Notes: generated by a model not told the origin, from the sequence alone. DNA of 62,942 nucleotides from Minisyncoccota bacterium (GCA_041663025.1 JBAZRE010000004.1:1-62942), one strand, 5' to 3'. Shown: positions 7,808 to 36,306, numbered from the stretch's first letter. Made by a program: numbers and translations.

Positions 7808-7844
7808 GTAAAAAAACAAAAGCGCCCTTAACAAAAGGCGCTTT
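7808..7844 (-). terminator. Rho-independent terminator (minus strand)
   Basis: Hairpin AAAGCGCC-loop-GGCGCTTT at 7818..7844, followed on the minus strand by TTTTGTTTTTTT. Confidence 0.6.
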
Positions 7845-7863
7845 CTGTCCAAAAACTTAAGGG

Positions 7864-8064
7864 TCAAGACTTGATGTCTAGGGTTCTAGTGTCAACTTTA
7901 AAACGATATTCACCGCAAGGGCAGGCTCTTTGTTCCAATGTGCGCAAACACAATGGATCGCACGAGTGACACGGCGGAAACAACTTACTTCTCTTCGTTA
8001 ATATTGCAGTTGCCATCATTCCAATTTTTTCCGAACTCAGATCGTGTGACGCTGCCTCAAGCAT
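7864..8064 (-). CDS. Small Cys-rich protein (hypothetical, possible zinc-binding)
   Basis: 66-aa ORF preceded by AAGGGGAGG 7 nt upstream of the ATG. Contains CHSCDPLC...CPCGEY. Followed by the terminator at 7808..7844. Confidence 0.45.
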   Translation of the reverse strand: MLEAASHDLSSEKIGMMATAILTKRSKLFPPCHSCDPLCLRTLEQRACPCGEYRFKVDTRTLDIKS

Positions 8065-8137
8065 ACTAAGACCTCCCCTTAAGAAAGAACCGGTTTTTGT
8101 CCAAACCCCCTGTTCGGACCCAGAGTGTTATATAACT

Positions 8138-8740: not shown

Positions 8741-8746
8741 GCAGAG

Positions 8747-8756
8747 AGTATATACT
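8747..8756. promoter_or_regulatory. Palindromic AGTATATACT forming overlapping divergent -10 boxes for rnhB and dnaE
   Basis: TATACT lies 7 nt upstream of the dnaE ATG (8764). Its reverse complement TATACT lies 6 nt upstream of the rnhB ATG (8740). Confidence 0.45.
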
Positions 8757-8763
8757 GAGGTCT

Positions 8764-11700
8764 ATGGCAAGCCGATTTATCCACCTCCACACCCACTCTC
8801 ACTATAGCTTCTTGCAGGCACTACCGAAGGTTGAGGACTTGGTGGAGAAGGCAAAGAAAGAAGGCATGGACGCGATTGCGCTCACCGACACCGGCAACAT
8901 GCACGGCGCGATCGAATTTTATAAAGCCGCCACGGCTGCAGGCGTGAAGCCGATTCTCGGCGTTGATGCCTATCTCGCACCACACTCTCGCCACGGGCGT
9001 GACAAAAATGTTGACGCAAAGCGATCACACATTGTCTTGCTGGCAGAAAATAACGTAGGCTACAAAAATCTCCTCGCACTCGTGACGAAGTCATGGGTTG
9101 AAGGGTTCTATGAGCGGCCACGCATGGACAAAGAATTATTGCGTGAGCATCACGAAGGGATCATCGCGCTCATCCCATCATTTGCCGGTGATGTCGCACA
9201 ACTCCTGCGTGCTGGAGACAGAGATGGAGCCGCGGCGGCGCTTGAAGAATTCAAACAGATATTCGGTGCAGAAAATGTCTTTCTTGAGATCACTCACCAT
9301 CCCAAAGTCGCCGGACACGAAGCTTTGCAGCAACATATAATCACCCTTGCTCATGCAAGCGATACGCCGCTTGTAGCGCAGCACGACGTGTATTACTTAG
9401 AGCCAGACGATCGTGCACCGACCGAGATTATGCGACGCATCCAATTGGGCAACGCGCAACACGCCAATGAAGACGAGGATTTTTCTTTCATCAGTGAGGA
9501 GACTGCAGAAAAGCTTTTTGCCGACACGTCAGAAGCGGTGATGAATTCACGCCATATTGCCGATCGCTGCAACCTTTCCTTTGAACTCGGGAAGTGGACA
9601 TTCCCTTTCGTCCCAGTATCACAGGGATTCAAAAGCCATGATGATGAACTCCGCGCAAAAGCGTATGCCGGCATTCCTTCGCGAGGTCTCGAAGAAACAA
9701 AAGAAGTTATCACGCGCATTGAGTATGAACTAAACATTATCATCGGCAAAGGATTCGCGGTCTATTATCTCATCGTCGCCGACCTACTGCGTTTCGCCAA
9801 GAACACCGGCATCCTCACCACGACCCGTGGCTCAGCGGCAGGATCTCTTGTTGCCTATCTTGTCGGTATTACCAACGTAAATCCGCTTTTCTATAAACTT
9901 CCCTTCGAGCGATTCTTGAATCCTGAGCGACCCAAAGCACCAGATATCGACATGGATATGGCTGACAATCGCCGCGACGATATGATCGCGTATGCCAAGC
10001 AGAAATATGGTGAAGACCGTGTTGCTCAGATCGGCACTTTCGGCACCATGATGGCGAGAGCGGCGGTGCGCGACGTTGCACGCGCGCTTGGCCACTCCTA
10101 CACCACCGGCGATCGCATCGCGAAGCTTATCCCGATCGGCTCGCAAGGATTCCCAATGACGATTGATCATGCGCTTGAGCTTGAACCAGATTTGAAGGCG
10201 CTCTATGACGAGGATGACGAGTCACGCGAAGTAATCGATCTGGCAAAACGCATTGAGGGCTGCGTGCGGCACGTCGGTGTCCACGCGGCGGGCATTGTCG
10301 TCGCACCAACGCCGCTTATCGAATGGACACCGATACAGCCCGACCCCAAGGGCACCGGCAAGCTCATCACGCAATATGATATGTACTCTATTACTGATGA
10401 GTATGGCGGCGTGGGGCTCCTCAAGTTTGACTTCCTTGGTATCAAAAATCTCGCGATTCTTGCAGACGCTGTTACTCGTGTGAAAGAAACGAGAGAAATT
10501 ATTGTTGATATTGAGAATGTCCCCATTGATGATGCGAAAACATATGAGATGCTGGCGCGTGGCGAGACCGAGGGCGTCTTCCAATTAAACGGCTCCGGTA
10601 TGACTCGCTGGCTCAAAGAATTGCGGCCAACTTCTATCCATGATATCAACGCCATGGTCGCACTCTATCGCCCAGGGCCGATGGAAACTATTCCAAATTA
10701 TATTGAGCGTAAGCATAATCCAAAACTCATTCATTATCTGGATCCACGGATGAAAGAATATTTGGATTTCTCGTATGGCATTCTGGTGTATCAAGACGAC
10801 GTGCTCTTGACTTCTATCAAGCTCGCCGGCTATTCGTGGCTCGAGGCAGACTCTCTGCGTAAGGCGATGGGTAAAAAGATTCCTGCAGTCATGCAGAAGG
10901 AAAAAGAAAAATTGTTGAAGGGTTTTATGGAATACGGCAAACTCTCCAAGCAGTTGTCCGAGAAATTGTGGGAGCTGATTGAGCCCTTTGCTGCTTACGG
11001 ATTCAACAAGGCGCACGCCGCAAGCTATGGCAAAGTCGCCTATCAGACTGCCTATATGAAGGCGAACTATCCGGTTGAATACCTCGCGGCGCTCCTCACC
11101 GCCGACTCAGGCGACACCGAGCAAATCGCGATCTTTGTCGCCGAAGCTCTGCGCATGGGCATCAAGGTATTGCCGCCGGATGTGAATGAAAGCGGCACAG
11201 CGTTTACCGTAGTACACGCAGAATTAGCTCGCGCAGATGGATTCATCGAGGGGGCTCCGCAGCGTGACGACGCGAGGACTGAGCAATTTCTTAGTAAAGA
11301 AATTGCGTACCCCGAGAGGAATTCGTCAAGTGAGCTTAACGCCATTCGTTTCGGGTTGTCATCAATCAAAAACTTCGGAGACGGGATTTCAGAAGCGATT
11401 ATTTCTGAGAGAAAAGCGAACGGCTCCTTCAAGACACTCTCTGAATTCTTATCAAGAGTCGGATCAAAGAATCTCAATCGCAAATCACTTGAATCACTCA
11501 TCAAATGCGGTGCGCTCGATTCACTTAACCCCTCGCGCGGGACACTACTTGAGAACATCGAGACGCTTCTCTCCTATCACCGAGAAGCAACGGCCGTTGC
11601 GCCACAAGATTCTCTCTTCGGCGCAGTTATGACCCTACCGGAGCTCGTCTTACCAGCAGGCAAATCAATTTCACTTCTCGACAAACTCGTGTGGGAAAAA

Positions 11701-15255: not shown

Positions 15256-17322
15256 CTAAAGATCAACCGTAGCAAGCTTTGCATTACTTTGAATGAAACT
15301 TTTACGTGCGGCGACGTCGGTACCCATGAGGATATCGAAGATACGATCGGCTGCCTCAGCATCTTCAACGTTGACGCGCTTTAGGACGCGGCGTTCTGGG
15401 TTCATCGTGGTCTCCCAGAGCTCGCTCGGATTCATTTCGCCGAGACCTTTGTAGCGCTGAATATTTACTTTTGTTGCTTTTTTTGCAGCTACTACTTCCT
15501 CTGCCGCTTCGTCTGAAGATTCGGCCTCATCACCCTCGCTAATCAACACCACCTCATTTGCTGCGGCACCAAACTCCTTCAAAACTGCTTCTTTTTCTTT
15601 ATCAGAATAGGCATACGCGCTCGCCTTCCCCTTCGTTATTTTATAGAGCGGCGGTTGGGCGATATATACAAACCCACCATCTATAATTGGCTTAAAATGT
15701 CTATACAAAAGAGTTAGGAGAAGCGTGCGGATGTGCGCGCCATCGACGTCAGCATCAGTCGCGATGATGATCTTGTGATAGCGCAGCTTCGAGAGGTCAA
15801 AGACGTCGCCGATGGCGGTACCCATGGCGACAATGAGCGCACGGATCTCGACCGACGCGAGCATGCGATCAAGGCGAGCGCGCTCGACGTTGAGGATCTT
15901 ACCGCGCAAAGGCAAGATTGCTTGTGTGCGGCGATCTCTGCCCTGCTTGCTCGATCCGCCGGCCGAGTCTCCCTCCACAATGAAGAGTTCACCCTCTTCG
16001 GCGCTCTTGGTCTGGCAGTCTGCTAGCTTACCTGGCAAAGTCATGCCCTCAAGTGCGCCCTTACGCAGCACAGAGTCCTTTGCTGCCTTTGCTGCCTTGC
16101 GCGCCTTCAATGCGAGCGAAACTTTATTGATAATAGCGCGTGCATCATCTGGATTCTCCTCAAGAAATGCCGCGAGCGCCTCACCGAAGACGGTTGCAAC
16201 CGCGCCCTGTGCTTCAACAGAACCAAGCTTCGCTTTGGTCTGTCCTTCAAACTGAATCTCAGCAAGTTTTACCGACACGACAGCAGTGATGCCCTCAAGC
16301 ACATCATCACCAGTGAAGTTTTCGTCCTTTTCTTTCAAAATATTCGAATTCCTGCCATAGGTGTTGAGCGATCGTGTGAGCGCTGTCTTGAAGCCAGTGA
16401 TATGCGTACCGCCCTCAGCGTTGTAAGTATTGTTTGCGAAGGCAGTGATGCGTGAGACGATATCGTCGACATATTGGAAGGCGACTTCGACTGAAACCTT
16501 ATCGATCTCGCGATCGATATAGAAAATGTTTTTGTGCACCGGCGTCTGATGCTTGTTGTGGAATGCGACGAGCGACTTGAGGCCGCCTTCAAAATAAAAG
16601 GTTGTCGATGGGACGCCGAGATTTTGTTCACGCAAGAAAACGGTCTCGGTCTCAAAGGCGTCTTTGTTATTATGCGCATCAACTATCGAGATGCGCACAC
16701 CCTTCACCAAGTACGCCTGCTGGCGCAGATGCGCGACTATCTTTTCCAAATTCCATTCAATACCCTCCTTAAAAATAGTCGCGTCTGGTTTGAAGAGAAC
16801 AATCGTGCCATGTTCTTTGCTGGTGCCAATTTTCTTTACCTTGTGAATTGGTTTACCAATTTTATATTCCTGCACGTGCATGCCGCCGTCTTGATGCACC
16901 ACAACCTTGGTGTGCTCCGAGAGTGCGTTCACCACAGATGCGCCAACGCCGTGCAAGCCTCCAGAGACCTTATATGCCTCATTATCAAACTTACCGCCTG
17001 CATGAAGCGTCGTCATGATCGTTTCCAACGCAGAAACTTTTGTTTTGGGATGAATACCAACCGGAATACCATTGCCATTATCGGCAACGCGCACATAGCC
17101 ATCAGGCAGGAGCGCTACCTCAATGTCGTCACAGCGTCCGACCATCGCCTCGTCGCGTGCGTTGTCGAAGATCTCCCAGACCAAGTGATGCAGGCCATCG
17201 GGCCCAGTCGTGCCGATGTACATCCCCGGGCGCTTGCGCACCGGCTCGAGCCCCTCGAGGACGGTAATAGACGAGGCATCGTACGCCTTCTTTTTAGGTT
17301 CTTTTTCAGGGGTTTTAGGCAT
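15256..17322 (-). CDS. gyrB: DNA gyrase subunit B
   Basis: SSITVLEGLEPVRKRPGMYIG and Toprim EGDSAGG motifs; 688 aa. Confidence 0.93.
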   Translation of the reverse strand: MPKTPEKEPKKKAYDASSITVLEGLEPVRKRPGMYIGTTGPDGLHHLVWEIFDNARDEAMVGRCDDIEVALLPDGYVRVADNGNGIPVGIHPKTKVSALETIMTTLHAGGKFDNEAYKVSGGLHGVGASVVNALSEHTKVVVHQDGGMHVQEYKIGKPIHKVKKIGTSKEHGTIVLFKPDATIFKEGIEWNLEKIVAHLRQQAYLVKGVRISIVDAHNNKDAFETETVFLREQNLGVPSTTFYFEGGLKSLVAFHNKHQTPVHKNIFYIDREIDKVSVEVAFQYVDDIVSRITAFANNTYNAEGGTHITGFKTALTRSLNTYGRNSNILKEKDENFTGDDVLEGITAVVSVKLAEIQFEGQTKAKLGSVEAQGAVATVFGEALAAFLEENPDDARAIINKVSLALKARKAAKAAKDSVLRKGALEGMTLPGKLADCQTKSAEEGELFIVEGDSAGGSSKQGRDRRTQAILPLRGKILNVERARLDRMLASVEIRALIVAMGTAIGDVFDLSKLRYHKIIIATDADVDGAHIRTLLLTLLYRHFKPIIDGGFVYIAQPPLYKITKGKASAYAYSDKEKEAVLKEFGAAANEVVLISEGDEAESSDEAAEEVVAAKKATKVNIQRYKGLGEMNPSELWETTMNPERRVLKRVNVEDAEAADRIFDILMGTDVAARKSFIQSNAKLATVDL

Positions 17323-23951: not shown

Positions 23952-24707
23952 TTATGCCGAGGCGTTGCGAAGAGCCTCAATGAGGTCATCGATACCGCCC
24001 AGCATTATCTTGGGTAGGTTGTGCCACGATTCTTGTAGGCGATGGTCGGTGACGCGATCTTGCAGATAGTTATAGGTGCGGATTTTTTCCGAACGATCAC
24101 CGGTGCCTATCTGCGCCTTGCGCTCGGCCGCATGCTCCTTCGCTTCCTTCTCTTCGTGCAATTGTTCAAGCTTCGCGGAGAGAATCTGCATCGCCTTCTC
24201 GCGGTTCGCCAGCTGACTGCGCTCGCTTGAAGAGCGCACGTCAATGCCCGTTGGCTTGTGGACAAGCCGCACCGCCGTCTCAACCTTGTTCACATTCTGC
24301 CCACCAGCGCCACCAGAGCGGGTGAATTGCATCTCAATATCTGCAGGATTTATTTCTATCTTTGATTTATCGCGAATCGGCAAAACTGCAATCGATGCGG
24401 TGGAGGTGTGGATGCGGCCCGTTTTCTCGGTCAAGGGCACACGTTGTACCCGATGCACACCGGTCTCATATTGGAGCGCATCATACGCATCAGAACCCGC
24501 GATCTCGAGTGTGAGTTCATCGATGGTGCGTGTCTTCCATCCACGGTGCTCAGCATACTTTTGATACATCTCCTTCAGGTCATGAGCGAAGATATTTGCT
24601 TCATCACCGCCCGCGCCAGCACGCAGCTCCATCACCACAGCGATCGGTGATGCGCTCGTGTTTTCTTTTTTTTCTTTTTGGCTTTTTAAATACTCTGCGT
24701 AGTCCAT
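23952..24707 (-). CDS. prfA: Peptide chain release factor 1, short form lacking most of domain 1
   Basis: [17 protein letters not shown] (PxT-type tripeptide) and [17 protein letters not shown] (GGQ). 251 aa. Confidence 0.8.
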
Positions 24708-24767: not shown

Positions 24768-25016
24768 TTATTTCTTCTTTGCCGCGCGCTGCTTAAAGCG
24801 CTCAACCCGACCAGTCTTATCAAGCATGCGATCCTCGCCGGTGTAGAAAGGGTGCGACTTGCTGGAAATTTCTACCGTCATCTTCGGATATTCCTTACCC
24901 TCAAACTTCGTTGTTTCGGTCGTCCGGATGGTTGAGCCAATAAGAAACTGCGCGCCAGAGGCGAGATCTTCAAATACGACAGGGCGATACCCTTCCGGAT
25001 GGATGTCCTTTTTCAT
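24768..25016 (-). CDS. rpmE: 50S ribosomal protein L31 (type B, no CxxC)
   Basis: [15 protein letters not shown]...SKSHPFYTG. Confidence 0.88.
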
Positions 25017-25070
25017 GTCCGAAGAATACCATGCGCCCTGTAGATACGCCAGTATGAGCTTCGCCTGAGC

Positions 25071-26402
25071 TCAAATACTTATTCTAGACAGACCCGAGAG
25101 ATTGCCCGCCTCAATGCTGTTGAGGAACGAATTAAATTCGCCTGACGACCCGAGCGGAACGAAATATTCTCTTACGGTTGTATTGTTGATACACTCGGAA
25201 CCGAATCTAGTAATTGAGTATTTGCCAGAGCCGACCTTCGGCTGTACAGGATTATCAGGTGTCGGCACTTCGTTACGTAGCGTACTGCCACTACAAGGAC
25301 AGCTCGCGTCTGATGGCGTGATAGCGTTGCAAATACCGCCCACGATTGTGCCAGTACTCGTCTGCCCGCATACATTAGCGTCTGAAGTGCATGGAACTGG
25401 AACATCCACCGTGACAGTCACCGACTGCATGGCCGAAGTACCGCCGGCGCCGGTGCATTGGAATTCGAATGTGGTATCAGAGGTAAGATGGTCAGTTAAG
25501 CCGCTCCCATTTAAACTGTCGCCTGTTGGAGATGTGAGATTAGACCACGGACCGTATGCTGTGCAGCTCGTAGCATTCGTGGAGCTCCAGGTGAGGGTGG
25601 AACGGCCGTTATATGCGACTGGATTAGGAGAGACAGTGATCGAGGCGGTTGGGACAGGCGGTGGAGAAGAAGTGCCGGCGATGCAACGAACTGAAAAACC
25701 GGAATTAAAATTATAGCTATTACTCGTGAGCGAAGCACTGCTGGAGATATAATACACAAAGGCAATTATTGTACCAACGGTAGGCGGGCCAAATATTGTG
25801 CTTGACCAGTATAAACCGATACTGTATGCGGGATTGGCTATCTGTGCACCCCCTTGATTCCTGCCACCAGCTGATGGCAATTTTAAAACTGAACTATAAG
25901 CTTTATCTGCACTATTAATGCCCTCACCTATTCTAACCGCCGCCCACTCATCTTGTGTTGGTACGCGGAAACCGTTTGGACATGGGTTATTTATATTAGT
26001 TGCTGGTTGCCATAGATCAAAATACATAGGGTTAAGCCACGTTCCAATTCCAGAAATTATAAATTTATTGTGTCCTGGAACATAACTTGAACTCACTGTG
26101 TTGATTGTGGAACTCGTGACAACCTGGTGGCCATCTGTTAACCTTCCCCATTGATATCTATAACCATAAGATAGAGGATCATTCTTATTATTAGCAACTT
26201 GCGATGCTCCAAGATTACGGTCAAGCCAACATTTACCATCACCGGCCATGACTAAACCGTAGGTATTTGTATCCGGAGCTTTGCCCTGCACCGTGCCCGA
26301 ACAGGCAGCCAAGGCGTCTGGCGCCACAGAGAAAAAAGCTATGACTGAAAATAAAATCAACCAGTGGCTTTTAGTTTTGGTTTTGTTTGTTTCGGTGAAC
26401 AT
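25071..26402 (-). CDS. Secreted protein: FISUMP-like (Fibrobacter succinogenes major paralogous) domain + Ig-like module + shared C-terminal module
   Basis: Signal-peptide-like N-terminus; CWLDRNLGA...YGYRYQWGR; TLTWSSTNATSC; C-terminal CSGSTLRNEVPT...GKYSITRFG module shared with 30094..31677. Confidence 0.7.
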   Translation of the reverse strand: MFTETNKTKTKSHWLILFSVIAFFSVAPDALAACSGTVQGKAPDTNTYGLVMAGDGKCWLDRNLGASQVANNKNDPLSYGYRYQWGRLTDGHQVVTSSTINTVSSSYVPGHNKFIISGIGTWLNPMYFDLWQPATNINNPCPNGFRVPTQDEWAAVRIGEGINSADKAYSSVLKLPSAGGRNQGGAQIANPAYSIGLYWSSTIFGPPTVGTIIAFVYYISSSASLTSNSYNFNSGFSVRCIAGTSSPPPVPTASITVSPNPVAYNGRSTLTWSSTNATSCTAYGPWSNLTSPTGDSLNGSGLTDHLTSDTTFEFQCTGAGGTSAMQSVTVTVDVPVPCTSDANVCGQTSTGTIVGGICNAITPSDASCPCSGSTLRNEVPTPDNPVQPKVGSGKYSITRFGSECINNTTVREYFVPLGSSGEFNSFLNSIEAGNLSGLSRISI

Positions 26403-26416
26403 TTTACCATATGAGG

Positions 26417-27610
26417 TTAAAACTCCTGGAAGCTTGAAGGGAGATTCACCGTAACTGATTTGCTAACCGGAGAGCCATTGGTCTGACACGTGATGGTGAA
26501 CACAGTCCGTCCAGTGATTGGGTCAGATACAATATCCGTGCCGCTGAGACCATTTTTCCATGCAGTGCCATTTTGCGTCACTGCACAACTCAGTACCTCA
26601 AGCGATGTCCACGTTATTTTTGAGGTTGAGCCGGATGGTACTCGCATCGGGTTTGCGCTGATAGAAACATTCGGCTGCGTCACAGTTACGGTCACATTAG
26701 AAGGAGATGATGGCGTGTCGTCAGAACTATAACAAGTGATCGAATAGGCCGATGTGGCAGATGGACTTACCGATACACCCGTACTGTTAGCGGCCGCAAC
26801 ATGTGTCATTGGATCGTTTGCAAATATGCAGTACGTCGCATTCGTAGAACTCCACGTCAATGTTGCCGATTGACCGTTGTCGATGGTCGCCGCGCCCGCG
26901 CCATTGACGAGGAGTGAGGCGGTTGGAAGGAACACGTCGCATGCTGGTGGGTTGGTTGCGCCATTGCTACACGCTCCACTCGTACATCCCTCGAAACAGG
27001 TGACGCAACTACTCTCATTCCAGAATAATGGATCGGCACAGGTGTTGCAGGTTGGATAATTGTTTGCACCGTTTACACACGCCATCGCTTCTGCCACGAC
27101 GCCATATCCCGACCCACTCCAAGAAATCCATCCAACTACGTCAGAGCCCCAAGAATATCCTGCGGCGGCATTTGCGGTGAAAGTGACGCTTGGTGACCAA
27201 GGACCGGATAATTTTATCCACCCGTCCCAGCCGCTTCCGTTCGCAGAAAGTGCCTTTGCCCAGCCGGTTACCGCTCCGGTGCTGGTGTTGAGATTCGGCT
27301 GTGTCGTGCACCCAGATTCCGGACATCCTGAAGTCTCGTTAAAAGAGATCCAGCCGATATTATCGCTCCACGCGTAGCCAGAAAAATTACCTGTGCTCGC
27401 GTTGATGTTCACGCCATAATCCACCGCACTGCCGTCAGAAATATTGTTAAAAGAGATCCAGCCGACAGTATCGCTCCACGCATAGCCGGAAACATTTTGA
27501 CCTGCACCCGCATGAGCAGTAGGGATTTGCAACCACTCTTCTTGACGAATACCCACTACAAAAACGAGTGTGGCGAGCAGCACAAGAGTAAGGGCGAGAC
27601 GTTTATTCAT
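26417..27610 (-). CDS. Secreted repeat protein (GYAWSDxxGWISF repeats + Ig-like modules)
   Basis: Signal-peptide-like N-terminus; three SGYAWSD..GWISFN-type repeats; ATLTWSSTNATYC module. Confidence 0.65.
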   Translation of the reverse strand: MNKRLALTLVLLATLVFVVGIRQEEWLQIPTAHAGAGQNVSGYAWSDTVGWISFNNISDGSAVDYGVNINASTGNFSGYAWSDNIGWISFNETSGCPESGCTTQPNLNTSTGAVTGWAKALSANGSGWDGWIKLSGPWSPSVTFTANAAAGYSWGSDVVGWISWSGSGYGVVAEAMACVNGANNYPTCNTCADPLFWNESSCVTCFEGCTSGACSNGATNPPACDVFLPTASLLVNGAGAATIDNGQSATLTWSSTNATYCIFANDPMTHVAAANSTGVSVSPSATSAYSITCYSSDDTPSSPSNVTVTVTQPNVSISANPMRVPSGSTSKITWTSLEVLSCAVTQNGTAWKNGLSGTDIVSDPITGRTVFTITCQTNGSPVSKSVTVNLPSSFQEF

Positions 27611-27981
27611 GGCGCTTTTTGTTGCATGGCATCAAGCAGTTTCTGCTTTTCGTCTGGAGAGACGACTGGGGCGGGGGCGGCAGCTGCCGCGCCCTTCTTC
27701 ACCGCCGCGGTGGTAGAAGCCGGTTGAGACATCTGATCAAATAACTTCTTTTTTTCTGCATCAGACGTAACAGTCGTTGTGGCTTGCCTCGACATTTCGT
27801 CAAAGAGTTGTTGCCGCATCTCCGCGGGAGTCTTGGCCGCACTTCCCTGATACCACTTCCAAGCGAAAACAGCGGCGGCAATCGCGAGAACGATCAAGAG
27901 AATCACCGCAAAGAGTTTCAATAGATGCTTGCTACGCATCCCCACTTCCGGCTGTTGCATGTATCCGTCAGGAACATTCAT
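27607..27981 (-). CDS. Membrane-anchored hypothetical protein
   Basis: 124-aa ORF with one TM helix. 4-nt overlap with the downstream gene. Confidence 0.55.
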   Translation of the reverse strand: MNVPDGYMQQPEVGMRSKHLLKLFAVILLIVLAIAAAVFAWKWYQGSAAKTPAEMRQQLFDEMSRQATTTVTSDAEKKKLFDQMSQPASTTAAVKKGAAAAAPAPVVSPDEKQKLLDAMQQKAP

Positions 27982-27984
27982 TGT

Positions 27985-30051
27985 TTATTTTTGCTCGAGC
28001 GCCTTTATTCTCGCTTTTAGATCTTCAATTTCCTTCTGCTGCGCCTTCACCGCCTCAATCAATGGACCGACGAGATTCCCGTATTGCACGGACTTGAGCC
28101 CAGTTGATGGATTAGTACTCACCAGGTCTGGATATACTTGCTCTACTTCTTGGGCGATAACGCCGACACTTGGTGTGCCGTCCTTCAACCAGTTAAACTC
28201 TACACCGCGAAGTTTGAGCACATTATCCAACGCATTTGGGAGTGTTTGAATATTCGTCTTGAGCGATGCGTCAGATGGATAAAGGAAGGATGTGGCCTGT
28301 ATATCGCCGTTTACTTGAAGCTTATATGCCGGATTATTCGTCCCGATGCCAACGAAGCCGCCGGATGCAATTCTCATCACTTCTGTATTATTGGGACTAA
28401 ACGTCATATCAACTCCAGCAACGCTGGAAAGTTCCAAGGTATTTTGTCTCCCGCCTGCGAATGCTGTTCCTATATAACTTACATAGCCTCTGCTGGCACC
28501 GCCTTCCGCGAAGATGATTTGGTTGTAAGATGATGTCGTTGGATGGTCTAATTTTATTGCTTTAGCATTGCCATAAACGTCAAGCGATTCGCTCGGACTC
28601 GCCGTCCCGATGCCAACGTTACCAGTTAGGAGTGAATTGCCTGTGACGAAGAAATTGCCATTGGCAGTTGAGCTGCTGCCATCGCTCGTGATAGTAGAAT
28701 TCCCAAGAGTAGTTCCGTTCGGCGTGTAGCGGGGGACGTAACCAACCGTGCCAGAACCTCCTATAGTCCCTCCGCCCGATGTAATGCAAGTGCCGTTCAC
28801 CTTGAAGCAGCCAGTCACATTGACATCGCCAGCGACATCAAGCTTATATGCCGGACTCGCTATCCCGATGCCGACTTTGCCGTCTGCCACCCTCATCACT
28901 TCACCATTATTCACGAAAAATGTTAATACGTTGGCGTTTCTTGTCCATATTCTATCAGTTCCATCGCCCATCGGCCCAATAACAAGATTCCCACCGTCAG
29001 CGTTAAACGACTGCGCATTGACTCCCCCATTCACGTTTAGTTCGCCACCGAGGGACACGCTTTTATCGGTGTTGAAGATGGCGCTGTAGGTGGCACAGTT
29101 GACAGACGCACAAATCTTCACTGGCCCTGAGACGCGGTAATTTATTTCAAGAGGATCGCCTGTTACGCCTGTATTTAGTGTGTCTATGTATAGATCAACG
29201 TTTTTTACTCCGTACGTTGTGTCTCCTCCGAAACCAATAACCGAGCTGGCATTCATCGTCCCGCCGGCGAGAGAGAGTGTGGAGCCCGATGCGGCAATAC
29301 AGGTGCCATTCACCTTGAAACAGCCCGTCACATTGACATCGCCTGCGACATCAAGCTTATACGCCGGGCTCATCGTCCCGATGCCGACTTTGCCGTCTGT
29401 TATCGTCATCACTTCAGCATTATTCACCAAAAACGATAGAGGAGTTGTATCTCTTGTCCAAACTCTATAGGTTCCGCTGACTGGGCCAACAACAAAATTC
29501 CCGTTTGCGATGCTGAATGATGCCGCGTTAACGGTACCGTTCACATCCAGTTTGTTTGTCGGGCTCGCTATCCCGATGCCGACGTTGCCGCTTGCCTTTA
29601 ATACGGTCAGGACATCTGAATTTGTTCCAAAACTATATAAGTTAAAGTTACTGTTCCCTATACCTCTCGTGCCAGCCAACCAATCCATCGTTGATCCAGT
29701 AGTGTATTTGATGGTAGCGCCTTCAGAAGCCGTAGGTCTGATCAACGATATCTGTGGGTCGACTCCACTCAAAGAACTTATAGTGAGCATGCTTCCCGGA
29801 ACCGCCGTACCGATGCCGACGTTGCCGAATGGCACCGAGAATCCAGTCGCAAACGTTCCGGCGGCATTCACCATCAGGTTGCCGTCTTTGCTCTGGAAGG
29901 TGTTGCTCACGTTGATTGGCGCATCGACATTCCCACTCGGCGGAGCAGAGGTTGGGCCAGTCCACGCATAGATCGTGCCGGCGAAGGCGAAGAGTCCGAT
30001 GGCGACGACGGTTATCTGGGCGACTTTGATGTATGAGTTTGTGTGGTTCAT
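27985..30051 (-). CDS. Tail-fibre-like surface protein with a C-terminal S74 / endosialidase intramolecular-chaperone-like domain
   Basis: N-terminal anchor then AWTGPTSAPPSGNV; repeated GNVGIGT modules; C-terminal DASLKTNI...LRGVEFNWL...GVIAQEVEQVYPDLV...LVGPLIEAVKAQQKEIEDLKARI. Confidence 0.75.
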   Translation of the reverse strand: MNHTNSYIKVAQITVVAIGLFAFAGTIYAWTGPTSAPPSGNVDAPINVSNTFQSKDGNLMVNAAGTFATGFSVPFGNVGIGTAVPGSMLTISSLSGVDPQISLIRPTASEGATIKYTTGSTMDWLAGTRGIGNSNFNLYSFGTNSDVLTVLKASGNVGIGIASPTNKLDVNGTVNAASFSIANGNFVVGPVSGTYRVWTRDTTPLSFLVNNAEVMTITDGKVGIGTMSPAYKLDVAGDVNVTGCFKVNGTCIAASGSTLSLAGGTMNASSVIGFGGDTTYGVKNVDLYIDTLNTGVTGDPLEINYRVSGPVKICASVNCATYSAIFNTDKSVSLGGELNVNGGVNAQSFNADGGNLVIGPMGDGTDRIWTRNANVLTFFVNNGEVMRVADGKVGIGIASPAYKLDVAGDVNVTGCFKVNGTCITSGGGTIGGSGTVGYVPRYTPNGTTLGNSTITSDGSSSTANGNFFVTGNSLLTGNVGIGTASPSESLDVYGNAKAIKLDHPTTSSYNQIIFAEGGASRGYVSYIGTAFAGGRQNTLELSSVAGVDMTFSPNNTEVMRIASGGFVGIGTNNPAYKLQVNGDIQATSFLYPSDASLKTNIQTLPNALDNVLKLRGVEFNWLKDGTPSVGVIAQEVEQVYPDLVSTNPSTGLKSVQYGNLVGPLIEAVKAQQKEIEDLKARIKALEQK

Positions 30052-30093
30052 AAGTGATATTTATTTTTTAAGTATAGTATAAAAGAAACTGTT

Positions 30094-31677
30094 TTAATTA
30101 CTTATTAGATTCAGCGCCGGAAACCTATTACCAGTTCCGAAGTTGTTTTTGAATAAATCAAATTCATCTGGCGACCCGAGCGGGGCAAAATATTCCAGAT
30201 CACCTGAATTGTCGAAGCAATAAGAAGTGCCAAATCTAGTAACCGAATATTTACCTCTTGGGCTCACCTTTGGCTGCACATCACTCGGACTTGTTGGCAC
30301 TTCGTTACGTAGTGTGCTGCCGCTACATGGTTGTGTGGGTTGCCCGGCAAGAAGAGCGTAACAATCATCCTTTGCACCTGGTGCGGGAGTAACGTCTACA
30401 CAGTCATATGTATGATAAGCCCCACAGGAGTCGCCGTGGTCACTACCAATGCAGGTGCTCTCTCCTTCTTGTATCTGCCCATTGCAGGTATAGGGAGCTC
30501 CGCACGCAAATACAGTTCCAGCAGTATTGTTATACGATGGACATTGATATGACCTCACTGTTGGAGCATTCCCAACACAAGACCAATTCCATGGGCCAGA
30601 ACCAGTGACAGTGGTAGGCGTGCCTTTGTCGGGTTCGCAAAGACCCATAGTCGGTGCAGAAGTCAAAGATGCTCCATTTATTGCCGAGCCGCAAACACCG
30701 TCAACTCTACAATAAGGCGTGGCGGTCTTAAGCGGTCCAACGATAGCATTACCAATAGTATGATAATCAATGGAAGGGAAAATTACATCTACTGCGTTGT
30801 CTTTATTTAAAAATTTATTTGCGCCCGGGACACTACAACTAGGGCAATCAGGCCCAAGGTAAGACCCTCCTCCTTCTGAGGTGTCGTATAGAATTGAACA
30901 ACCTGCAATTCCATCTAATGCAGGAGTGGAGCCAGTGTAGTAATCCCCTAAGATTTTTGCCACATAGGCGACATACGAATTACCAGGGATTGTCTGGTCG
31001 ACGAATGTGCAGGTATTGCCTATGCAGAATGTTGAGGCTTTGGCGGTAATTATTATTTTACTCGTGTTATCTGGACCGTAGTGATAAATACTTCCCATAT
31101 AAGTTCTCTCCGAATTAAGAGTATCGTACAGTGTGAAACCATTACCGGCTTCATTTTTGATTTGGTTTATAAACCAGTCATTGAGAGTCGCTTGATCGCT
31201 GCTTGCTGGGATGGTAAAACGATAAATCGCGATGCTTCGGTCAGCCTCGTTAAAACTGGTGTCTGGAATGCAGCTGTTGTTAACATTCAGTTGTGGAATA
31301 TAAAAATGAATCGACTGACCATATCTGCAACTATTCGTTGCAGAAGACACAATTGCCACTGATACACCTCCGGATGAACCGACTCCGCAAATAAACCCTG
31401 CATAACAGGCAACGGCAGATAAGAGAGGATCCCCACCGGTGAATGTTGACGCCACAATTATAGTGCCGAGATTGCCGGTAAGATTGCTGAATGAGCCACC
31501 GATTATAAGCACTGGCGATATGATTGCTAGGGTGACTGACACCAGACCCACGGTAAAAACGTCTGCAATAAACCCAAGCACTCCGCCAGCATGAGCCGTA
31601 GGTGGTGCCCACACTGAAGAAACAGTTATCGCTACAAGCAGAAATAAAACAAAAAACTTTTTTTTAAATAAATCCAT
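30094..31677 (-). CDS. Secreted Cys-rich protein with the shared C-terminal module
   Basis: Signal-peptide-like N-terminus. C-terminal CSGSTLRNEVPT...GKYSVTRFG...EYFAPLGSPDEF module is homologous to the end of 25071..26402. Confidence 0.65.
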   Translation of the reverse strand: MDLFKKKFFVLFLLVAITVSSVWAPPTAHAGGVLGFIADVFTVGLVSVTLAIISPVLIIGGSFSNLTGNLGTIIVASTFTGGDPLLSAVACYAGFICGVGSSGGVSVAIVSSATNSCRYGQSIHFYIPQLNVNNSCIPDTSFNEADRSIAIYRFTIPASSDQATLNDWFINQIKNEAGNGFTLYDTLNSERTYMGSIYHYGPDNTSKIIITAKASTFCIGNTCTFVDQTIPGNSYVAYVAKILGDYYTGSTPALDGIAGCSILYDTSEGGGSYLGPDCPSCSVPGANKFLNKDNAVDVIFPSIDYHTIGNAIVGPLKTATPYCRVDGVCGSAINGASLTSAPTMGLCEPDKGTPTTVTGSGPWNWSCVGNAPTVRSYQCPSYNNTAGTVFACGAPYTCNGQIQEGESTCIGSDHGDSCGAYHTYDCVDVTPAPGAKDDCYALLAGQPTQPCSGSTLRNEVPTSPSDVQPKVSPRGKYSVTRFGTSYCFDNSGDLEYFAPLGSPDEFDLFKNNFGTGNRFPALNLISN

Positions 31678-31711
31678 AGAATCTATCTAGCTGCTCTATA
31701 TATTGTAGATA

Positions 31712-31966
31712 TCATGTAATTATGTAGTGAGGTAAAATTCCTTTACCTTGGAGCCATGGACCTATCCACAGAGTGGCTGCAATAAACCAGGCAACTGCAA
31801 AAATAGCGATAAGAATGCCCTCTTTCCTACGATCCTTCTCTAACGCTAAAGCAATACCATAAATTAAACCGACCGCCACATTAGAAATCGCTGCCACAAT
31901 CCCAATCCAGAACCACTTGCGCCACAGACCGAATTGACTATTTGTTGAAAAGTTTGGATCATCCAT
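31712..31966 (-). CDS. Small membrane protein (hypothetical)
   Basis: 84-aa ORF with two or three TM helices; first gene of the minus-strand surface operon. Confidence 0.55.
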   Translation of the reverse strand: MDDPNFSTNSQFGLWRKWFWIGIVAAISNVAVGLIYGIALALEKDRRKEGILIAIFAVAWFIAATLWIGPWLQGKGILPHYIIT

Positions 31967-32027
31967 ACTGACAGTATATCACTCACCTACTCAATCGCTT
32001 TGGGCGAGTTATCAACAGTGCACAAAC

Positions 32028-32070
32028 CTATAAAACAAGAAGCCCCCCTTCAATCGCTTGAAGAGGGGCT
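32028..32070 (-). terminator. Rho-independent terminator after the metalloprotease gene
   Basis: Hairpin AGCCCC(C)CTTCAA-TCGC-TTGAAG(A)GGGGCT followed on the minus strand by TTCTTGTTTT. Confidence 0.65.
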
Positions 32071-32104
32071 AAAGAGCTGGTGATTCCATCGTAACCTCTG
32101 TTTC

Positions 32105-33349
32105 CTATTGTAATTTGAGTTCGAGAACGTACGTATATTTATTTGCCTCATCGTTCTGGAAGTAAGCCATTTCCAGATCGACAGAAGTATATACGGCCCC
32201 TGCTAACTTCTCGCCCCGATATGCCTTCACTCCTTTGGCATCCCATGGGTCATTGTTTATTATTTTTGCCATTCCGTTTACGTCGGTGGAGAGCGTTTGC
32301 AACACGGTCTCCATGTTCTTGGCAATGACGACGTCAGAATAACCGGTGTTGTCGTACCATATTCCGCCATAGACTATGACCGTAGCGTTTGGGACCGGCG
32401 CGCCAGAAGTGTCAACAACCTTGACCCAAGGTTGTACCAAGTTATGTGCGGCAAACATAACCCCGACAACACTCAATTGGTGATTAGCATTATGGCTAAT
32501 AAACCAACTGTTGAACGGCGAGAACTTGTACTCCTGGATGTTGTACTTCCACACGTCTGAACTGCTCATGGGGTCTTGAGAGAACTGCGCCTTGAAGTTC
32601 AGATCTAATGTTGGCAGTGTACCGCTCTTGTCAGAGCATACCAAGCCGTACCATTCTGGCGCTCCCAACCCAAGTGTGTGACCAAGTTCATGCAACAACG
32701 TAGAGAGCTTTACGTAGTAGGAGCTCAATCCGTTGACTGCTTTTGGTAGGTTATCAATGCCGAGCAGAATGGTGTTTGTCGTTACTTCAGCGATGAGAAT
32801 AAACCCGTATGTCTTCCCATTGATGTAGTTCGTGCCGGCGAGGCCAGTGGATCCCTGGAAAAATTTCGGTAGATTCCCTCCATCTGGTTGAGTCCAATAC
32901 ACCACTGTTGTTCCGCCAACATATGGATTCCCGATGAACTTATTGTCGTAGAAGTAGTCGGGCGTGGTTCTGATGGTGTCGAGTGCCGCCGCGTTTGCAT
33001 AGGTAATAACCTTGCCTAACGCATAACGCTTCTTGCACTCCGGATCCTTCGCCAACACGGCATTAATGTCCGCGACTATCTGTCGAACATTGGTCTCCAA
33101 TTCTGGATGAATATCGGCAAAATCCTTGTTCACCAAGAAGTTGATAGTCTCGGTCAGATCGCTGGCCGGGACTGGGGAAAGAAAAATGTTTGTTTTCGTT
33201 CCAGGAACTGTTGTAGATACCGTTGGAGTAGTAATCGGAGTAACCGTTAGTGTGGATTTACCTCCATCACTTCCGCCGCCCCCGCAACCAGACAACAAAA
33301 ACAACATAATCACAACACACACAATTCTTTTCATCGCACGTACTTTCAT
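32105..33349 (-). CDS. Lipoprotein with a zinc-metalloprotease HExxH motif
   Basis: Lipobox LLSGC; HELGHTLGL motif; 414 aa. Confidence 0.65.
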   Translation of the reverse strand: MKVRAMKRIVCVVIMLFLLSGCGGGGSDGGKSTLTVTPITTPTVSTTVPGTKTNIFLSPVPASDLTETINFLVNKDFADIHPELETNVRQIVADINAVLAKDPECKKRYALGKVITYANAAALDTIRTTPDYFYDNKFIGNPYVGGTTVVYWTQPDGGNLPKFFQGSTGLAGTNYINGKTYGFILIAEVTTNTILLGIDNLPKAVNGLSSYYVKLSTLLHELGHTLGLGAPEWYGLVCSDKSGTLPTLDLNFKAQFSQDPMSSSDVWKYNIQEYKFSPFNSWFISHNANHQLSVVGVMFAAHNLVQPWVKVVDTSGAPVPNATVIVYGGIWYDNTGYSDVVIAKNMETVLQTLSTDVNGMAKIINNDPWDAKGVKAYRGEKLAGAVYTSVDLEMAYFQNDEANKYTYVLELKLQ

Positions 33350-33481
33350 TGCACTTCCCTCCTTCCTTTCAATGTTTTAGGGTTATATCTCTATTTTTTG
33401 TCTCTGTCAGCGAACGACAATCTATTGATTAGTATACGTTATAAGTAGAAACATAGCAAGACCCAGAGGTGCACTGCTACA

Positions 33482-34960
33482 ATGAGGAATATGTGGCTGC
33501 CGGTCGTGTCTGCCCTCGCGGGCATTGTCGTCTTCTTGCCGATGAATTTTTATCCGGCGGCTTTCGTCTTTCTCATTCCACTTTTTATCTTCTTCTTGCG
33601 AGAAGAGAAGCTGTGGCGACTGGTTGTTGGGGCTCTTTTATTCCGCTTGATCTTCTCCATGGGTACAGTTTATTTTACTCTTGAGCCAATCCTCTGGATT
33701 TCTTCTCTTCTCATTTTTTGCGGCCTGCCTCTCTCAATCTTCTTCTTCAAAAGACTCATCTTCAAATTTGCGGACACGGAGTGTCCGCAAATTCCTACCT
33801 CCTGCTCCTGCCTCCTGCTCGTTTCCTTGCCTTTCTTATGGACCTTCTTTGACCTCGCGCAAGCGCAGTATTCTCTTGCACCGATTTATATCGCCAGCGC
33901 CGGCAACGCACTCGGCTCTTCGCCATTTCTTGGGCTGGCAGCTCTCGGCGGGTTCGTCGTGCTCACTTTCTTCGTCGTGCTCATCAACTCACTTCTCGCA
34001 ATTCTTGTTCTGATCTGGCGGCGAAACCCCCAAGTTGCTTGGGGGTTTCGCCGCCAAGTGATTTATGTTCTGATTGCAATTATTGTTCTCCTTTTTGCTG
34101 GCTGGCAAATTGCAAGCTTCGAGCTGCGCCAGAATGCCATTGCTTATGCCGCCCTGCCGAACTCAATCAACATTGCCGCCATTTCTACCAATGGAACACT
34201 TGCTGTCGACCAGCTTGCACAACTCACACAAGAATTGGCCGGCCAGCAACTTGATCTCATCATCTTCCCCGAAGATATCCTCAACCAGCATGTAGGACGT
34301 CCGACGTCCTACATGCTGGGAAACAGCTCGACTGCTGTGTTTCAAGATCTTGCGAAAGAACTTAGCACAAATGTCCTCGCGAGCTACGACACGCTTCAAG
34401 GTACTACCAGCACATTAAAATATGGCTCGACAATCTTGTTTGACCAACAAGGAAGCATTGCCGGCATCCACAACAAAAACCGCCTCACATTCGCAGGCGA
34501 ATACTGGCCTTTCGGCAATTGGCACCCGTCTTTTTACGACTGGCTGAAGACACGGAATCCGAGCATTGGAACCTATGCAATCTTTGACCAGAAGAATGCA
34601 GACACTCCGGGCGAGCAGAATCTGCTCTCATTGGCGCTCGGAGAAAACACCGTGTCTTTTGCCGCACCCATCTGCTTGGAGATTCACTATCCGACTGATT
34701 TGGCAGCATACCGAACGCAAGGCGCGCGCTTCATAATCAACCCTTCAAGTAATCGCTGGATCGGCGGTGGTCTCTCGCATTTCTTATATCTCACAACCAA
34801 TGTAAAAAAAATAGAAAGTGTTGCTCTCCAACTGCCGATTATTTCAAGTGGCGTTGATGACTTCGCCGGCATTATTCTTCCGAATGGACAATCACAGATG
34901 CTTCCCTACCAAACAACTGGCAAAACCTACAACGTATTTTTCGGCACTGTCAGATATTAG
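33482..34960 (+). CDS. lnt: Apolipoprotein N-acyltransferase-like protein (polytopic N-terminus + CN-hydrolase domain)
   Basis: Multiple TM helices followed by IIFPEDIL (Glu), HNKNRLTFAGEYWPFG (Lys) and APICLEIHY (Cys), which resemble the Lnt E-K-C triad contexts. Confidence 0.65.
   Translation: MRNMWLPVVSALAGIVVFLPMNFYPAAFVFLIPLFIFFLREEKLWRLVVGALLFRLIFSMGTVYFTLEPILWISSLLIFCGLPLSIFFFKRLIFKFADTECPQIPTSCSCLLLVSLPFLWTFFDLAQAQYSLAPIYIASAGNALGSSPFLGLAALGGFVVLTFFVVLINSLLAILVLIWRRNPQVAWGFRRQVIYVLIAIIVLLFAGWQIASFELRQNAIAYAALPNSINIAAISTNGTLAVDQLAQLTQELAGQQLDLIIFPEDILNQHVGRPTSYMLGNSSTAVFQDLAKELSTNVLASYDTLQGTTSTLKYGSTILFDQQGSIAGIHNKNRLTFAGEYWPFGNWHPSFYDWLKTRNPSIGTYAIFDQKNADTPGEQNLLSLALGENTVSFAAPICLEIHYPTDLAAYRTQGARFIINPSSNRWIGGGLSHFLYLTTNVKKIESVALQLPIISSGVDDFAGIILPNGQSQMLPYQTTGKTYNVFFGTVRY
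34286..34318. repeat. Family C palindrome, 33-nt perfect copy inside the lnt-like gene (encodes HVGRPTSYM)
   Basis: CAGCATGTAGGACGTC-C-GACGTCCTACATGCTG, read in-frame. Confidence 0.88.
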
Positions 34961-36306
34961 AATCCACTTAGGATGTCGATCTCCTGCTGGAAGTCCTTGG
35001 CGAATCGCATCACATTGTCACCATACGGAGCAAAAGCAGGAGTCTTATAATAACTACCGGCAAAATATTTTAGAGCTGCTGTGCGTTCTGCAGTAGGCGT
35101 TTGTGTGGCAGCACCGAGGTCCGTCATATAAAGCGCGATGGCGGTAAACGCGTCTAGATTGTTCCATGGGTTCGCTGGAGAACCCACATGTCCGGCGAGC
35201 TTCGCGATGCGATATTGGTAAGACGTCCAGGTGGAGGGGATAAATTGCGCCGGACCCATCGCACCGCCGTAGCCAGTGGATTGCGGACACGAAACAGGCA
35301 TGGAGAATGGATCAAGTCCTAGTGCTGCGGTGATCGCCATGAATGGATCCACGTCGCGAGTTGGCTTCATTACGCCTCTGAAAATGGTGCCTGTATTCTT
35401 GCCCTTGCCGTCTCCCTTGTTGGGAGAATTCGTGAGGAGGCATTGACCAACGTTTGCACCAAGATTGGTCTCCTGCTTGAGGATGCCAAGAATGAATGCT
35501 GGACGAATACCAGTGGCAGCTCCCGCCTGCTTCGCGAGCGTGACAGCCGTCGGGAACGGTATCTGCCCACCACCGCCAGCGAGGGCGAAAAGCTCGGTGC
35601 GAATCTGTGCGGCAGTCTTCTGGCTGGTGGCGATAAGCTTCTGGTAGTTCGCCTCAAGACCCTTGGTCTGTGTGAGGAGATGTTGTTTCTGTGCCTCCTG
35701 AGTTTGTACCGCCTGTTTGGCGACTTGTGCAACCTGACGCAATTGTTGCTGCTCTGCCACGCGCGCCTGCAATGCCTCCTTCTCCGCCTCGGTCGAAACA
35801 CTCGTTTGTTGGATCTGATTGAAAGAATCTGCAAGTGAACTCTTTATAGATACAAAGGCATCGAGATCGCTGAAGAAACCCGAGACATCCTGTGAGCCAA
35901 GCGCAACACTAACAACCGAATAATCATCAAGCATCTGCGTTTGACGAAGTATCTGCGCGAGCGACTCTTTCTCTGCGGCAAGCTGTTTCGAGAGCGAGGA
36001 GAGCGTATTATTCCGCACCCCAATATCGCCGTTTAGCTTCGTGATGGTCAGTGTGATTGCTTGGATCTGAAGTTGTGTTTTCTTGATCTCGGCATTGAAG
36101 GCATTGATCTGTGTCTGAAGTGTTTGGTGTTGGTTTTGTGCAACATCAAGGAGCTTTTGCTGGTCTGCAATTTGACTCTCGAGCTGATTGAGCTGGTTCT
36201 GAAGGTCTTGTTGACGTTGTGAGACCGCTTGCGCAGCATCCTGAGCGTGCGCCCAGACGGGAACGCAAATGAGAACGCAGAAAGTAAGAAGAATAAACCG
36301 ACGCAT
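34957..36306 (-). CDS. Secreted coiled-coil protein with a C-terminal lytic-transglycosylase-like domain
   Basis: Signal-peptide-like N-terminus, about 220 aa of Q-rich coiled coil, then ILKQETNLG...GAMGPAQFIPSTW (MltB/SLT-like). Confidence 0.6.
   Translation of the reverse strand: MRRFILLTFCVLICVPVWAHAQDAAQAVSQRQQDLQNQLNQLESQIADQQKLLDVAQNQHQTLQTQINAFNAEIKKTQLQIQAITLTITKLNGDIGVRNNTLSSLSKQLAAEKESLAQILRQTQMLDDYSVVSVALGSQDVSGFFSDLDAFVSIKSSLADSFNQIQQTSVSTEAEKEALQARVAEQQQLRQVAQVAKQAVQTQEAQKQHLLTQTKGLEANYQKLIATSQKTAAQIRTELFALAGGGGQIPFPTAVTLAKQAGAATGIRPAFILGILKQETNLGANVGQCLLTNSPNKGDGKGKNTGTIFRGVMKPTRDVDPFMAITAALGLDPFSMPVSCPQSTGYGGAMGPAQFIPSTWTSYQYRIAKLAGHVGSPANPWNNLDAFTAIALYMTDLGAATQTPTAERTAALKYFAGSYYKTPAFAPYGDNVMRFAKDFQQEIDILSGF

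Follow-up and report, generated by a model that had tools for sequence, protein, structure and literature searches.

We analyzed a gene cluster of a Minisyncoccota bacterium (GCA_041663025.1), which belongs to the Candidate Phyla Radiation (CPR, Patescibacteria) and has a genome of 666 kb in 14 contigs. The window, i.e., the whole stretch that was examined, is the 62,942-bp contig JBAZRE010000004.1. Six open reading frames (ORFs) on its minus strand are named g6 to g1 in their order from the upstream end, and g7 is a lipoprotein gene upstream of g6 (Table 1). The cluster contains a single fiber gene with a C-terminal S74 domain, g4, and, rather than a prophage, it is probably a device for attachment to a host or a surface.

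Gene organization of the locus

An earlier reading of this DNA, made from the sequence alone (the sequence-only reading), had described six tightly packed or overlapping genes with signal-peptide or membrane-anchored products. All six ORFs are present at exactly the coordinates that it gave, and the gaps between consecutive genes from g6 to g1 are 34, 42, 3, −4, and 14 bp, with g3 and g2 overlapping by 4 bp. Each of the six products has an N-terminal hydrophobic 19-mer, in agreement with the second part of the description; there are three such segments in g5 and two in g6. The sequence P-T-A-H-A-G is common to g2 and g5 at the predicted signal-peptidase site.

Table 1. Coordinates of the genes and other features at the locus, counted from the first nucleotide of the window
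Feature	Coordinates	Strand	Description
g6	31712..31966	−	84 aa, two hydrophobic helices; first gene past the terminator
g5	30094..31677	−	527 aa, exported, Cys-rich
g4	27985..30051	−	688 aa, MAT-like fiber precursor with C-terminal S74 (MAT, mosaic adhesive trimer)
g3	27607..27981	−	124 aa, bitopic membrane protein
g2	26417..27610	−	397 aa, GW-repeat protein with immunoglobulin (Ig)-like domains
g1	25071..26402	−	443 aa, exported, FISUMP-like domain
Intrinsic-terminator-like hairpin	32041..32070	−	13-bp stem and T-run, between g7 and g6
g4 signal peptide and conserved base	29707..30051	−	residues 1-115; ..IYA/WTGP, WTGPTSAPPSGNVDAPINVSNTFQSKDGNL..GNVGIGT
g4 S74 chaperone domain and terminal coiled coil	27985..28275	−	residues 593-688; PF13884 match, S16 gp37/MYRF alignment
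g2 GW-repeat domain	27056..27520	−	residues 31-185, four GYAWSD.xGWISFN repeats
C-terminal module of g5	30097..30285	−	residues 465-527, consensus GKYxVTKFG..C..N..YFxPLGSxxEFxxF..LxGL
C-terminal module of g1	25074..25265	−	residues ~380-443
Variable insert	25017..34956		9.9 kb; lnt, lipoprotein gene g7, g6 to g1; from synteny with 20 relatives
Conserved flank, SLT-domain gene	34957..36306		
Conserved flank, rpmE	24768..25016		

The hairpin between g7 and g6 has the features of a strong terminator and is probably the upstream limit of the g6 to g1 transcription unit. Because this terminator lies upstream of g6 and no convincing terminator was found inside the cluster, a single transcription unit from g6 to g1 is plausible. 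The hairpin downstream of g1 has no T-run, and thus transcription may read through from g1 into rpmE. The G+C content at third codon positions (GC3) is 0.38-0.43 in g1, g5, and g6 (0.38 in g5 and 0.43 in g1), 0.51-0.56 in g2 to g4, and 0.54-0.60 in the backbone. The locus was found in two sequencing runs, both groundwater DNA metagenomes, which come from different studies (2018 and 2022) and in which its sequence is identical.

g4 encodes an S74 fiber resembling the MAT type

The 688-aa product of g4 matched the Pfam model PF13884 (Peptidase_S74) with 59.5 bits (cut-off 22) at residues 593-644, which bears out the C-terminal S74 domain named in the sequence-only reading. In a scan of the whole genome (64.5 bits) this was the only S74 copy. 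The Ser-Lys dyad is intact: the SDxxxK motif reads SDASLK at residues 593-598 (nt 28258-28275), giving Ser593 and Lys598, and it is retained in 118 of the 120 best g4 homologs. The cleavage site is predicted to lie immediately before Ser593. When the g4 sequence was searched with phmmer against PDB sequences, the S74 region aligned with gp37 of phage S16 (6F45) and with MYRF (7DC3), and SDASLK aligned with SDRRIK of gp37.

The shaft of g4 contains six GxVGIGxxxPxxxL repeats, at residues 76, 155, 220, 391, 477, and 565, which are seen in the DNA as a six-copy 54-nt repeat and a 143-nt duplication. In the phmmer search these repeats aligned to 8OML (E 8.5e-5) and 8ON4. 8OML is Bd1334, a mosaic adhesive trimer (MAT) fiber of Bdellovibrio (PMC10769870). 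Thus, the statement of the sequence-only reading that no named system matches the gene set does not hold for the fiber, which matches the Bdellovibrio MAT kind.

By sequence inspection, a hydrophobic segment at residues 6-24 is followed by an A-x-A-like site (IYA/W) that is conserved in the family. The N-terminal base that follows is common to many proteins of 150-800 aa in relatives. In the fiber loci described below, the g4-type N-terminus has a signal peptide and then A/W-T-G-P-T-x-x-P-P-x-x-N..AP-[IL]-N..Q-x-K-x-G. There are more than 3300 g4 homologs, on contigs of up to 1.7 Mb, and the named ones are annotated as 'tail fiber domain-containing protein' of Falkowbacteria, Paceibacterota, Peregrinibacteria, and other CPR groups.

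Two candidate observations around g4 were rejected. A second 688-aa ORF (15256-17322) was considered as a g4 paralog; it is gyrB, and the equal length is coincidental. Apparent joints and a depth of about 100x at 28.6-29.8 kb were considered as rearrangements of the locus; they come instead from short contigs of other community members. In both metagenomes such foreign short contigs cover positions 28600-29840 with a summed depth of up to ~100x, compared with ~8x for the locus. Many community members have almost the same DNA over ~20 nt where the GxVGIGxxxP repeat is encoded, and such similarity would favor recombination between fiber genes.

g2 and g3 encode a GW-repeat protein and a small membrane protein

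The product of g2 starts with a signal/anchor helix and a GW-repeat beta domain; a Cys-rich linker leads to two Ig-like domains and the C-terminal tail FQEF. The GYAWSD..GWISFN repeats seen in the sequence-only reading were confirmed and characterize a large family, of which a collection of 5.8 billion clusters contains at least 2746 members. The W, G, and Y columns of the repeats are invariant in this family, and F-x-E-F is conserved at the C-terminus. No significant Pfam or NCBIfam match was found for g2, g3, g5, or g6, and there is no Pfam model for the GW repeats.

AlphaFold modeling, suggested by the sequence-only reading, was carried out on g2 and gave a confident model. The full-length AlphaFold2 model, from an alignment of 54 sequences, has a mean predicted local distance difference test score (pLDDT) of 84 and comprises an N-terminal helix, an all-beta domain at residues 40-175, and two Ig-like domains, which a Cys-rich linker of poor order separates from the all-beta part. 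Compared with the PDB, it retrieved only generic tandem Ig folds. Modeled alone (pLDDT 85.5, predicted template modeling score 0.82), the GW domain had no significant neighbor in the PDB (best hemophilin, E 0.02, TM-score 0.46) and none in BFVD (best E 0.17). We regard it as a beta domain that has not been catalogued before.

g2 is the only ORF of the genome that ends in FxEF. Membrane-anchored proteins of 600-850 aa in five relatives' loci (L032, at 7445-10003, and L021, L023, L024, and L030, where the genes adjoin rpmE) have the same two terminal Ig-like domains as g2, and at least the protein in L032 has the F-x-E-F tail as well. The Ig-Ig(-FxEF) end appears to be a C-terminal cassette that can be transferred between proteins. 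Both g1 and g2 contain Ig-like domains of the 'TLTWSSTNATSC' type. We also considered whether FQEF of g2, or the C-terminal module of g1 and g5 described below, is a sorting signal of the LPXTG, PEP-CTERM, or GlyGly-CTERM types, and rejected this as there is no terminal hydrophobic segment.

The g3 protein has KKLFDxMSQ-type repeats. g3-like genes are at the same position in L040, L064, L048, L055, and L056, and L042/L044 has one in divergent orientation.

The fiber, membrane protein, and GW protein genes are linked in relatives

Conservation of the six genes as a set was not borne out: the set is absent from 60 relatives, in which g5 and the FISUMP-like half of g1 have no homolog. What recurs are sub-blocks, namely g4-g3-g2, a module protein beside an S74 fiber, and g6-g5.

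In L040, L041, L042/L044, L032, and L064, one or more base-bearing fiber genes, a small transmembrane (TM) protein gene, and a GW protein gene are found in the same order. One or two base-bearing genes precede the g2-like gene in L040, L041, L042, and L064, which are metagenome contigs, and in L032, which is from genome G022. A g3-like gene usually stands between them, again overlapping by 4 bp and sharing the ...EKQKL[FL]DAMQQK end. Some of the base-bearing neighbors end in S74; many are only 190-340 aa long and have no S74.

Base-bearing genes were called by a hidden Markov model (HMM) of the base. Among 20 GW loci that were located independently in relatives, 13 adjoin a base-HMM gene (P ~7e-12, a rough binomial estimate against chance). 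We also took an even sample of 300 Patescibacteria genomes across the phylum, using a narrow base profile. The base was found in 14 genomes, GW in 32, and both in nine (Fisher P 8e-7); in five of these nine, the two are within 5 kb on the same strand. The linkage of the core genes g4-g3-g2 is thus statistically strong.

A second recurrent site of the fiber/GW module lies between uvrB and uvrA (L042/L044, from G009, and L040). In G009, the SLT-domain gene is gone from the L25-rpmE site and is found directly upstream of the fiber module (L020 compared with L042/L044). The SLT-domain gene may be linked to the fiber module, on this single observation.

g1 and g5 share a C-terminal module

In g1, a FISUMP-like domain (residues ~44-241) is followed by a single Ig-like domain, a Cys-rich linker, and a C-terminal module. 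The FISUMP domain that the sequence-only reading had assigned to this cluster is a match below the curated cut-offs only, although it covers nearly the whole Pfam profile: 27.9 bits (cut-off 33.9, E 3e-6) for PF09603 and 30.8 bits (cut-off 41.65, E 4e-7) for TIGR02145. In g5, a signal peptide and a Gly-rich hydrophobic region come before a conserved central domain, and the protein ends in a C-terminal module; only five homologs were found among the 5.8 billion clusters.

The C-termini of g1 and g5 are 56% identical over ~80 aa. An exhaustive phmmer search with the module among 1.84 billion representatives gave 12 matches. In the genuine carriers P0131, P0134, and P0135, as in g1 and g5, the module sits at the very C-terminus, and it looks like a domain of ~60 aa that closes the protein. 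Other matches were discarded: P0127, the top match with 19 stretches, is an unrelated Ig-like tandem repeat with a short APLGS..EY..F motif, and in P0005 and P0006 the similarity is to regions of g5 outside the module.

The gene for P0134 is 40 bp upstream of a gene for a 414-aa fiber with base and S74, which is followed by g3-like and g2-like genes (L064), and this is the g5-g4-g3-g2 order of the window. The gene for P0135 begins 2 bp after a gene for a 328-aa fiber with base and S74 (L065). The fourth module locus, L066, is a 3-kb contig and is uninformative. Module proteins therefore adjoin an S74 fiber gene in all three informative contexts.

L016, L062, and L063 each carry a g6-like gene (52-57% identity) immediately upstream of a g5-like gene, with an Lnt-like gene and/or lipoprotein genes nearby. 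The order in L062 (lnt, g6-like, g5-like, base-bearing protein, TM protein) is as in the window. In L016 and L063, the g6-g5 pair has no fiber gene and is beside Lnt and lipoproteins.

The cluster fills a variable site between an SLT-domain gene and rpmE

For synteny analysis we used RF1 as the anchor and took the region from 20 relatives. The backbone tktN-tktC-pfkB-fba-L25-SLT-rpmE-prfA-rpsB-tsf is conserved. In nine of the 20 loci SLT abuts rpmE, and in two relatives there is about 1 kb between them, which in one case holds two type IV pilin genes. Different inserts of 5-10 kb, mainly encoding exported or membrane-anchored proteins, occupy this site in seven same-genus genomes. These inserts resemble that of the window at the domain level only, in Ig-Ig-FxEF C-termini and, in L032, in a base-bearing gene beside a g2-like gene. 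The cluster is a species-specific filling of the variable SLT-rpmE site.

The variable insert also includes an Lnt-like gene (33482-34960, plus strand), for which 40 relatives have no close homolog. Two other species have distant Lnt-like genes (24-26% identity) at the same SLT-rpmE site (L028, 6403-7992, and L029, 8824-10350), again beside lipobox proteins. Downstream of rpmE, RF1 (prfA, 23952-24707, minus strand) is only 251 aa long and starts 60 nt after rpmE. The rpmE-RF1 spacing is equally short in some relatives of the same genus (L020, L025, and L027), and in others (e.g., L022) there are ~290 nt more before the aligned part. The genus may have short and long forms of RF1, of which the short one would lose most of the N-terminal domain.

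Relationship to phages and the rest of the contig

The absence of capsid, portal, terminase, and integrase genes reported in the sequence-only reading was confirmed among the larger ORFs (at least 150 aa) scanned across the 62.9-kb contig. These are mostly housekeeping genes (RNase R, SMC, RNase III, NusB, DnaE, tRNA synthetases, GyrB, PheST, EF-Ts, S2, RF1, L31, L25, and glycolysis and pentose-phosphate enzymes), together with other large surface proteins. The whole genome has no match to the HK97 capsid (PF05065) or the tail sheath (PF04984).

When g1 to g7 were compared with PHROGs, only g4 had clear matches, to 33 tail-fiber/baseplate families. Matches of g2 and g3 were marginal (E ~2e-4), and g1, g5, g6, and g7 had none. 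A tblastn search of g4 against 50,697 phage records found matches in 726. Among the 12 best places listed, phage matches start at residue 76, the first shaft repeat, or later, and none of them covers residues 1-75. For the GW domain of g2, neither the sequence nor the fold comparison gave a phage match. Phages share the shaft and chaperone, whereas the base and partner proteins are cellular. With housekeeping genes on both flanks and a base and partners that are not of phage type, the view of the sequence-only reading that this is a cellular surface cluster using a phage tail-fiber module is upheld.

Elsewhere on the contig, a giant ORF of more than 3,500 aa (52309-62940, minus strand) runs off the contig end. 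Its fiber-type repeats resemble those of the g4 shaft, its C-terminal part carries a bacterial Ig-like domain (PF16403), and it is probably a second, far larger surface fiber of this genome. Between the sugar-metabolism genes and this giant fiber gene are genes for an 806-aa surface protein with DUF2341 and LamG (45437-47857, minus strand) and for a RhuM-family protein (51214-52284, minus strand).

Discussion

The gene structure, the domain identities, the intact dyad, the non-phage context, the location in a variable site, and the strong gene linkage are directly established. We think it rather likely that the cluster is a chromosomal surface-fiber locus of a CPR bacterium, in which a Sec-exported fiber display module and docked accessory proteins are encoded in a variable site. 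From these observations we infer trimerization, cleavage, the binding partners, and the biological target as follows. g4 would be exported by Sec and would fold as a trimer starting from the C-terminal S74 intramolecular chaperone, which would then cut itself off before Ser593 by means of the Ser593/Lys598 dyad. This order is proposed by analogy with phage S74 proteins and with Bd3182 of Bdellovibrio, in which an S782A mutation blocks processing (PMC10769870). The mature fiber would have ~560 residues, with beta-helical repeats as in MAT fibers and phage tail fibers. Its non-phage base (WTGPTSAPPxGN..) might be held at the envelope by g2 and g3, which are candidates for this role because both families travel with the base across CPR genomes. 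In Bdellovibrio, the holder of the MAT N-terminal domain is stated to be unknown (PMC10769870). The C-terminal module might dock the variable g1 (FISUMP/lectin-like) and g5 (Cys-rich) proteins onto the fiber or its mount; this role is suggested because the module genes are tied exclusively to S74-type fiber genes. g6 might be a small membrane partner of g5. The device as a whole would serve in attachment to a host cell or another surface, and its specificity would be changed by cassette swaps at the site.

A more far-reaching version, which we regard as possible but rather doubtful, is a Patescibacterial plug-and-play display system with three tiers. A g3-type tether and a g2-type GW socket would hold the constant base of Sec-exported, phage-derived, S74-matured trimers. 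The C-terminal docking module of ~60 residues would clip unrelated lectin-like or Cys-rich proteins such as g1 and g5 onto these fibers. The kit would be kept in recombination hot spots (SLT-rpmE and uvrB-uvrA), so that host specificity could be exchanged cassette by cassette.

Several points weigh against a surface-fiber locus with docked accessory proteins. The two runs that hold the locus provide DNA evidence only. The contacts of the base with the GW and TM proteins, and of the module with the fiber, we infer from gene adjacency alone. Seven of the 20 GW loci have no adjacent base-bearing gene, although three of these seven are cut by contig ends, and g3-like genes were detected at only about one third of GW loci. 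The module sample is tiny (five proteins at four loci, three of them informative). The modeled GW domain has no structural relative that would hint at a binding function. The likeness to MAT fibers lies in the shaft, the S74 domain, and the layout, and the CPR base is at most a putative counterpart of the conserved N-terminal domain (~130 aa, beta-rich) that all MATs share. Finally, g1, g5, and g6 differ in composition and could be neighbors in a site where surface genes are dumped.

This last point can be taken further. In that case, unrelated surface genes would have gathered in a recombination hot spot, the functional unit would be g4-g3-g2 only, and g1, g5, and g6 would be independent, for example separate adhesins or clients of an Lnt-linked lipoprotein pathway. 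The six-gene set occurs in no relative, GC3 of these three genes differs, the g6-g5 pair is found beside Lnt and lipoproteins with no fiber gene (L016 and L063), and the site carries unrelated cargo in other species, including pilins and enzymes. However, proteins with the g1/g5 module flank S74 fiber genes wherever the context is informative, L062 repeats lnt-g6-g5-base protein, L064 repeats module protein, S74 fiber, g3, and g2, and the genes of the cluster overlap or are separated by 3-42 bp, and no convincing terminator was found among them. We consider such a gathering unlikely. A fiber that is mounted by the GW protein as a tip adhesin on type IV pili or another filament, and not free-standing and anchored in the envelope, is quite improbable. 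In a different family (L033), pilin genes do occupy the SLT-rpmE site, L032 has a pilin gene ~6 kb upstream of the fiber/GW module, and in L016 a pilin-like gene adjoins the g6-like gene, but no pilin or pilus-assembly gene is present among the ORFs scanned in the window, and the signal of g4 is of the Sec type and not a prepilin signal.

A remnant of a prophage or tailocin, in which g4 would be a leftover tail-fiber gene and its neighbors decayed phage genes, is hardly credible. The PHROGs and phage matches of g4 would agree with it, as would the insertion at a variable site and the atypical GC3 of g1, g5, and g6. On the other hand, the ORFs scanned on the 63-kb contig include no phage gene for structural proteins, packaging, lysis, or an integrase, neither a capsid nor a sheath was matched in the genome, and g1, g5, g6, and g7 have no PHROGs match. 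Moreover, every ORF is intact and has an export signal, the best phage matches listed leave the N-terminal base uncovered, the GW partner has no phage match, and the same gene order is found between housekeeping genes in many CPR genomes.

Among known systems, the surface-fiber locus described here is closest to the MAT fibers, of which one subgroup carries S74 (e.g., Bd3182; Caulton et al. 2024, PMC10769870). Like g4, MAT fibers have a signal peptide followed by a conserved N-terminal domain and a long shaft with VG.G...P...L-type repeats, and the S74 subgroup ends in a C-terminal S74 chaperone with SDxxxK. We also count it as a likeness that they form a chromosomal multi-member family in a bacterium that lives on other bacteria. 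In contrast, Bdellovibrio is a diderm predator with 13 S74 copies, while the host of g4 is a monoderm-type CPR bacterium with one. Moreover, the MAT paper links no GW-repeat protein, small membrane protein, or module protein to the fiber, and here they are linked. Phage tail fibers and tailspikes (K1F endosialidase, T5 pb1, and S16 gp37; PF13884) share with g4 the S74 domain, the Ser-Lys dyad, and a repeat-rich shaft. Unlike them, g4 has no virion context, and it has a Sec signal and a cellular base in place of a baseplate-attachment domain. For the module only, gp37-gp38 of the S16/T2 type and cohesin-dockerin embody an analogous idea, that of exchangeable binding proteins docked on a constant scaffold; this analogy is functional and is drawn from gene adjacency, not from sequence or fold.

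The fiber itself belongs to a known kind, the MAT-like S74 fibers, and such genes already carry generic annotations in CPR genomes. Our literature searches on S74 and tail-fiber proteins in CPR bacteria found no paper describing the module, module-bearing accessory proteins, or the location in a variable site. The linked GW/anchor genes, the accessories with the C-terminal module, and the variable-site location are thus new with respect to the literature found.

Host recognition and attachment in CPR bacteria are largely unknown beyond the type IV pili of Saccharibacteria, and the locus offers a concrete parts list. It contains a putative self-cleaving fiber of the kind used by Bdellovibrio for prey recognition, a rare candidate docking-type module on accessory proteins, and two conserved proteins that are candidates for mounting the fiber and could also help to find the anchor of MAT fibers. 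These claims are open to work with recombinant proteins, which does not require culturing the organism. The differences at this site among species of a single genus are consistent with diversifying selection on surface recognition.

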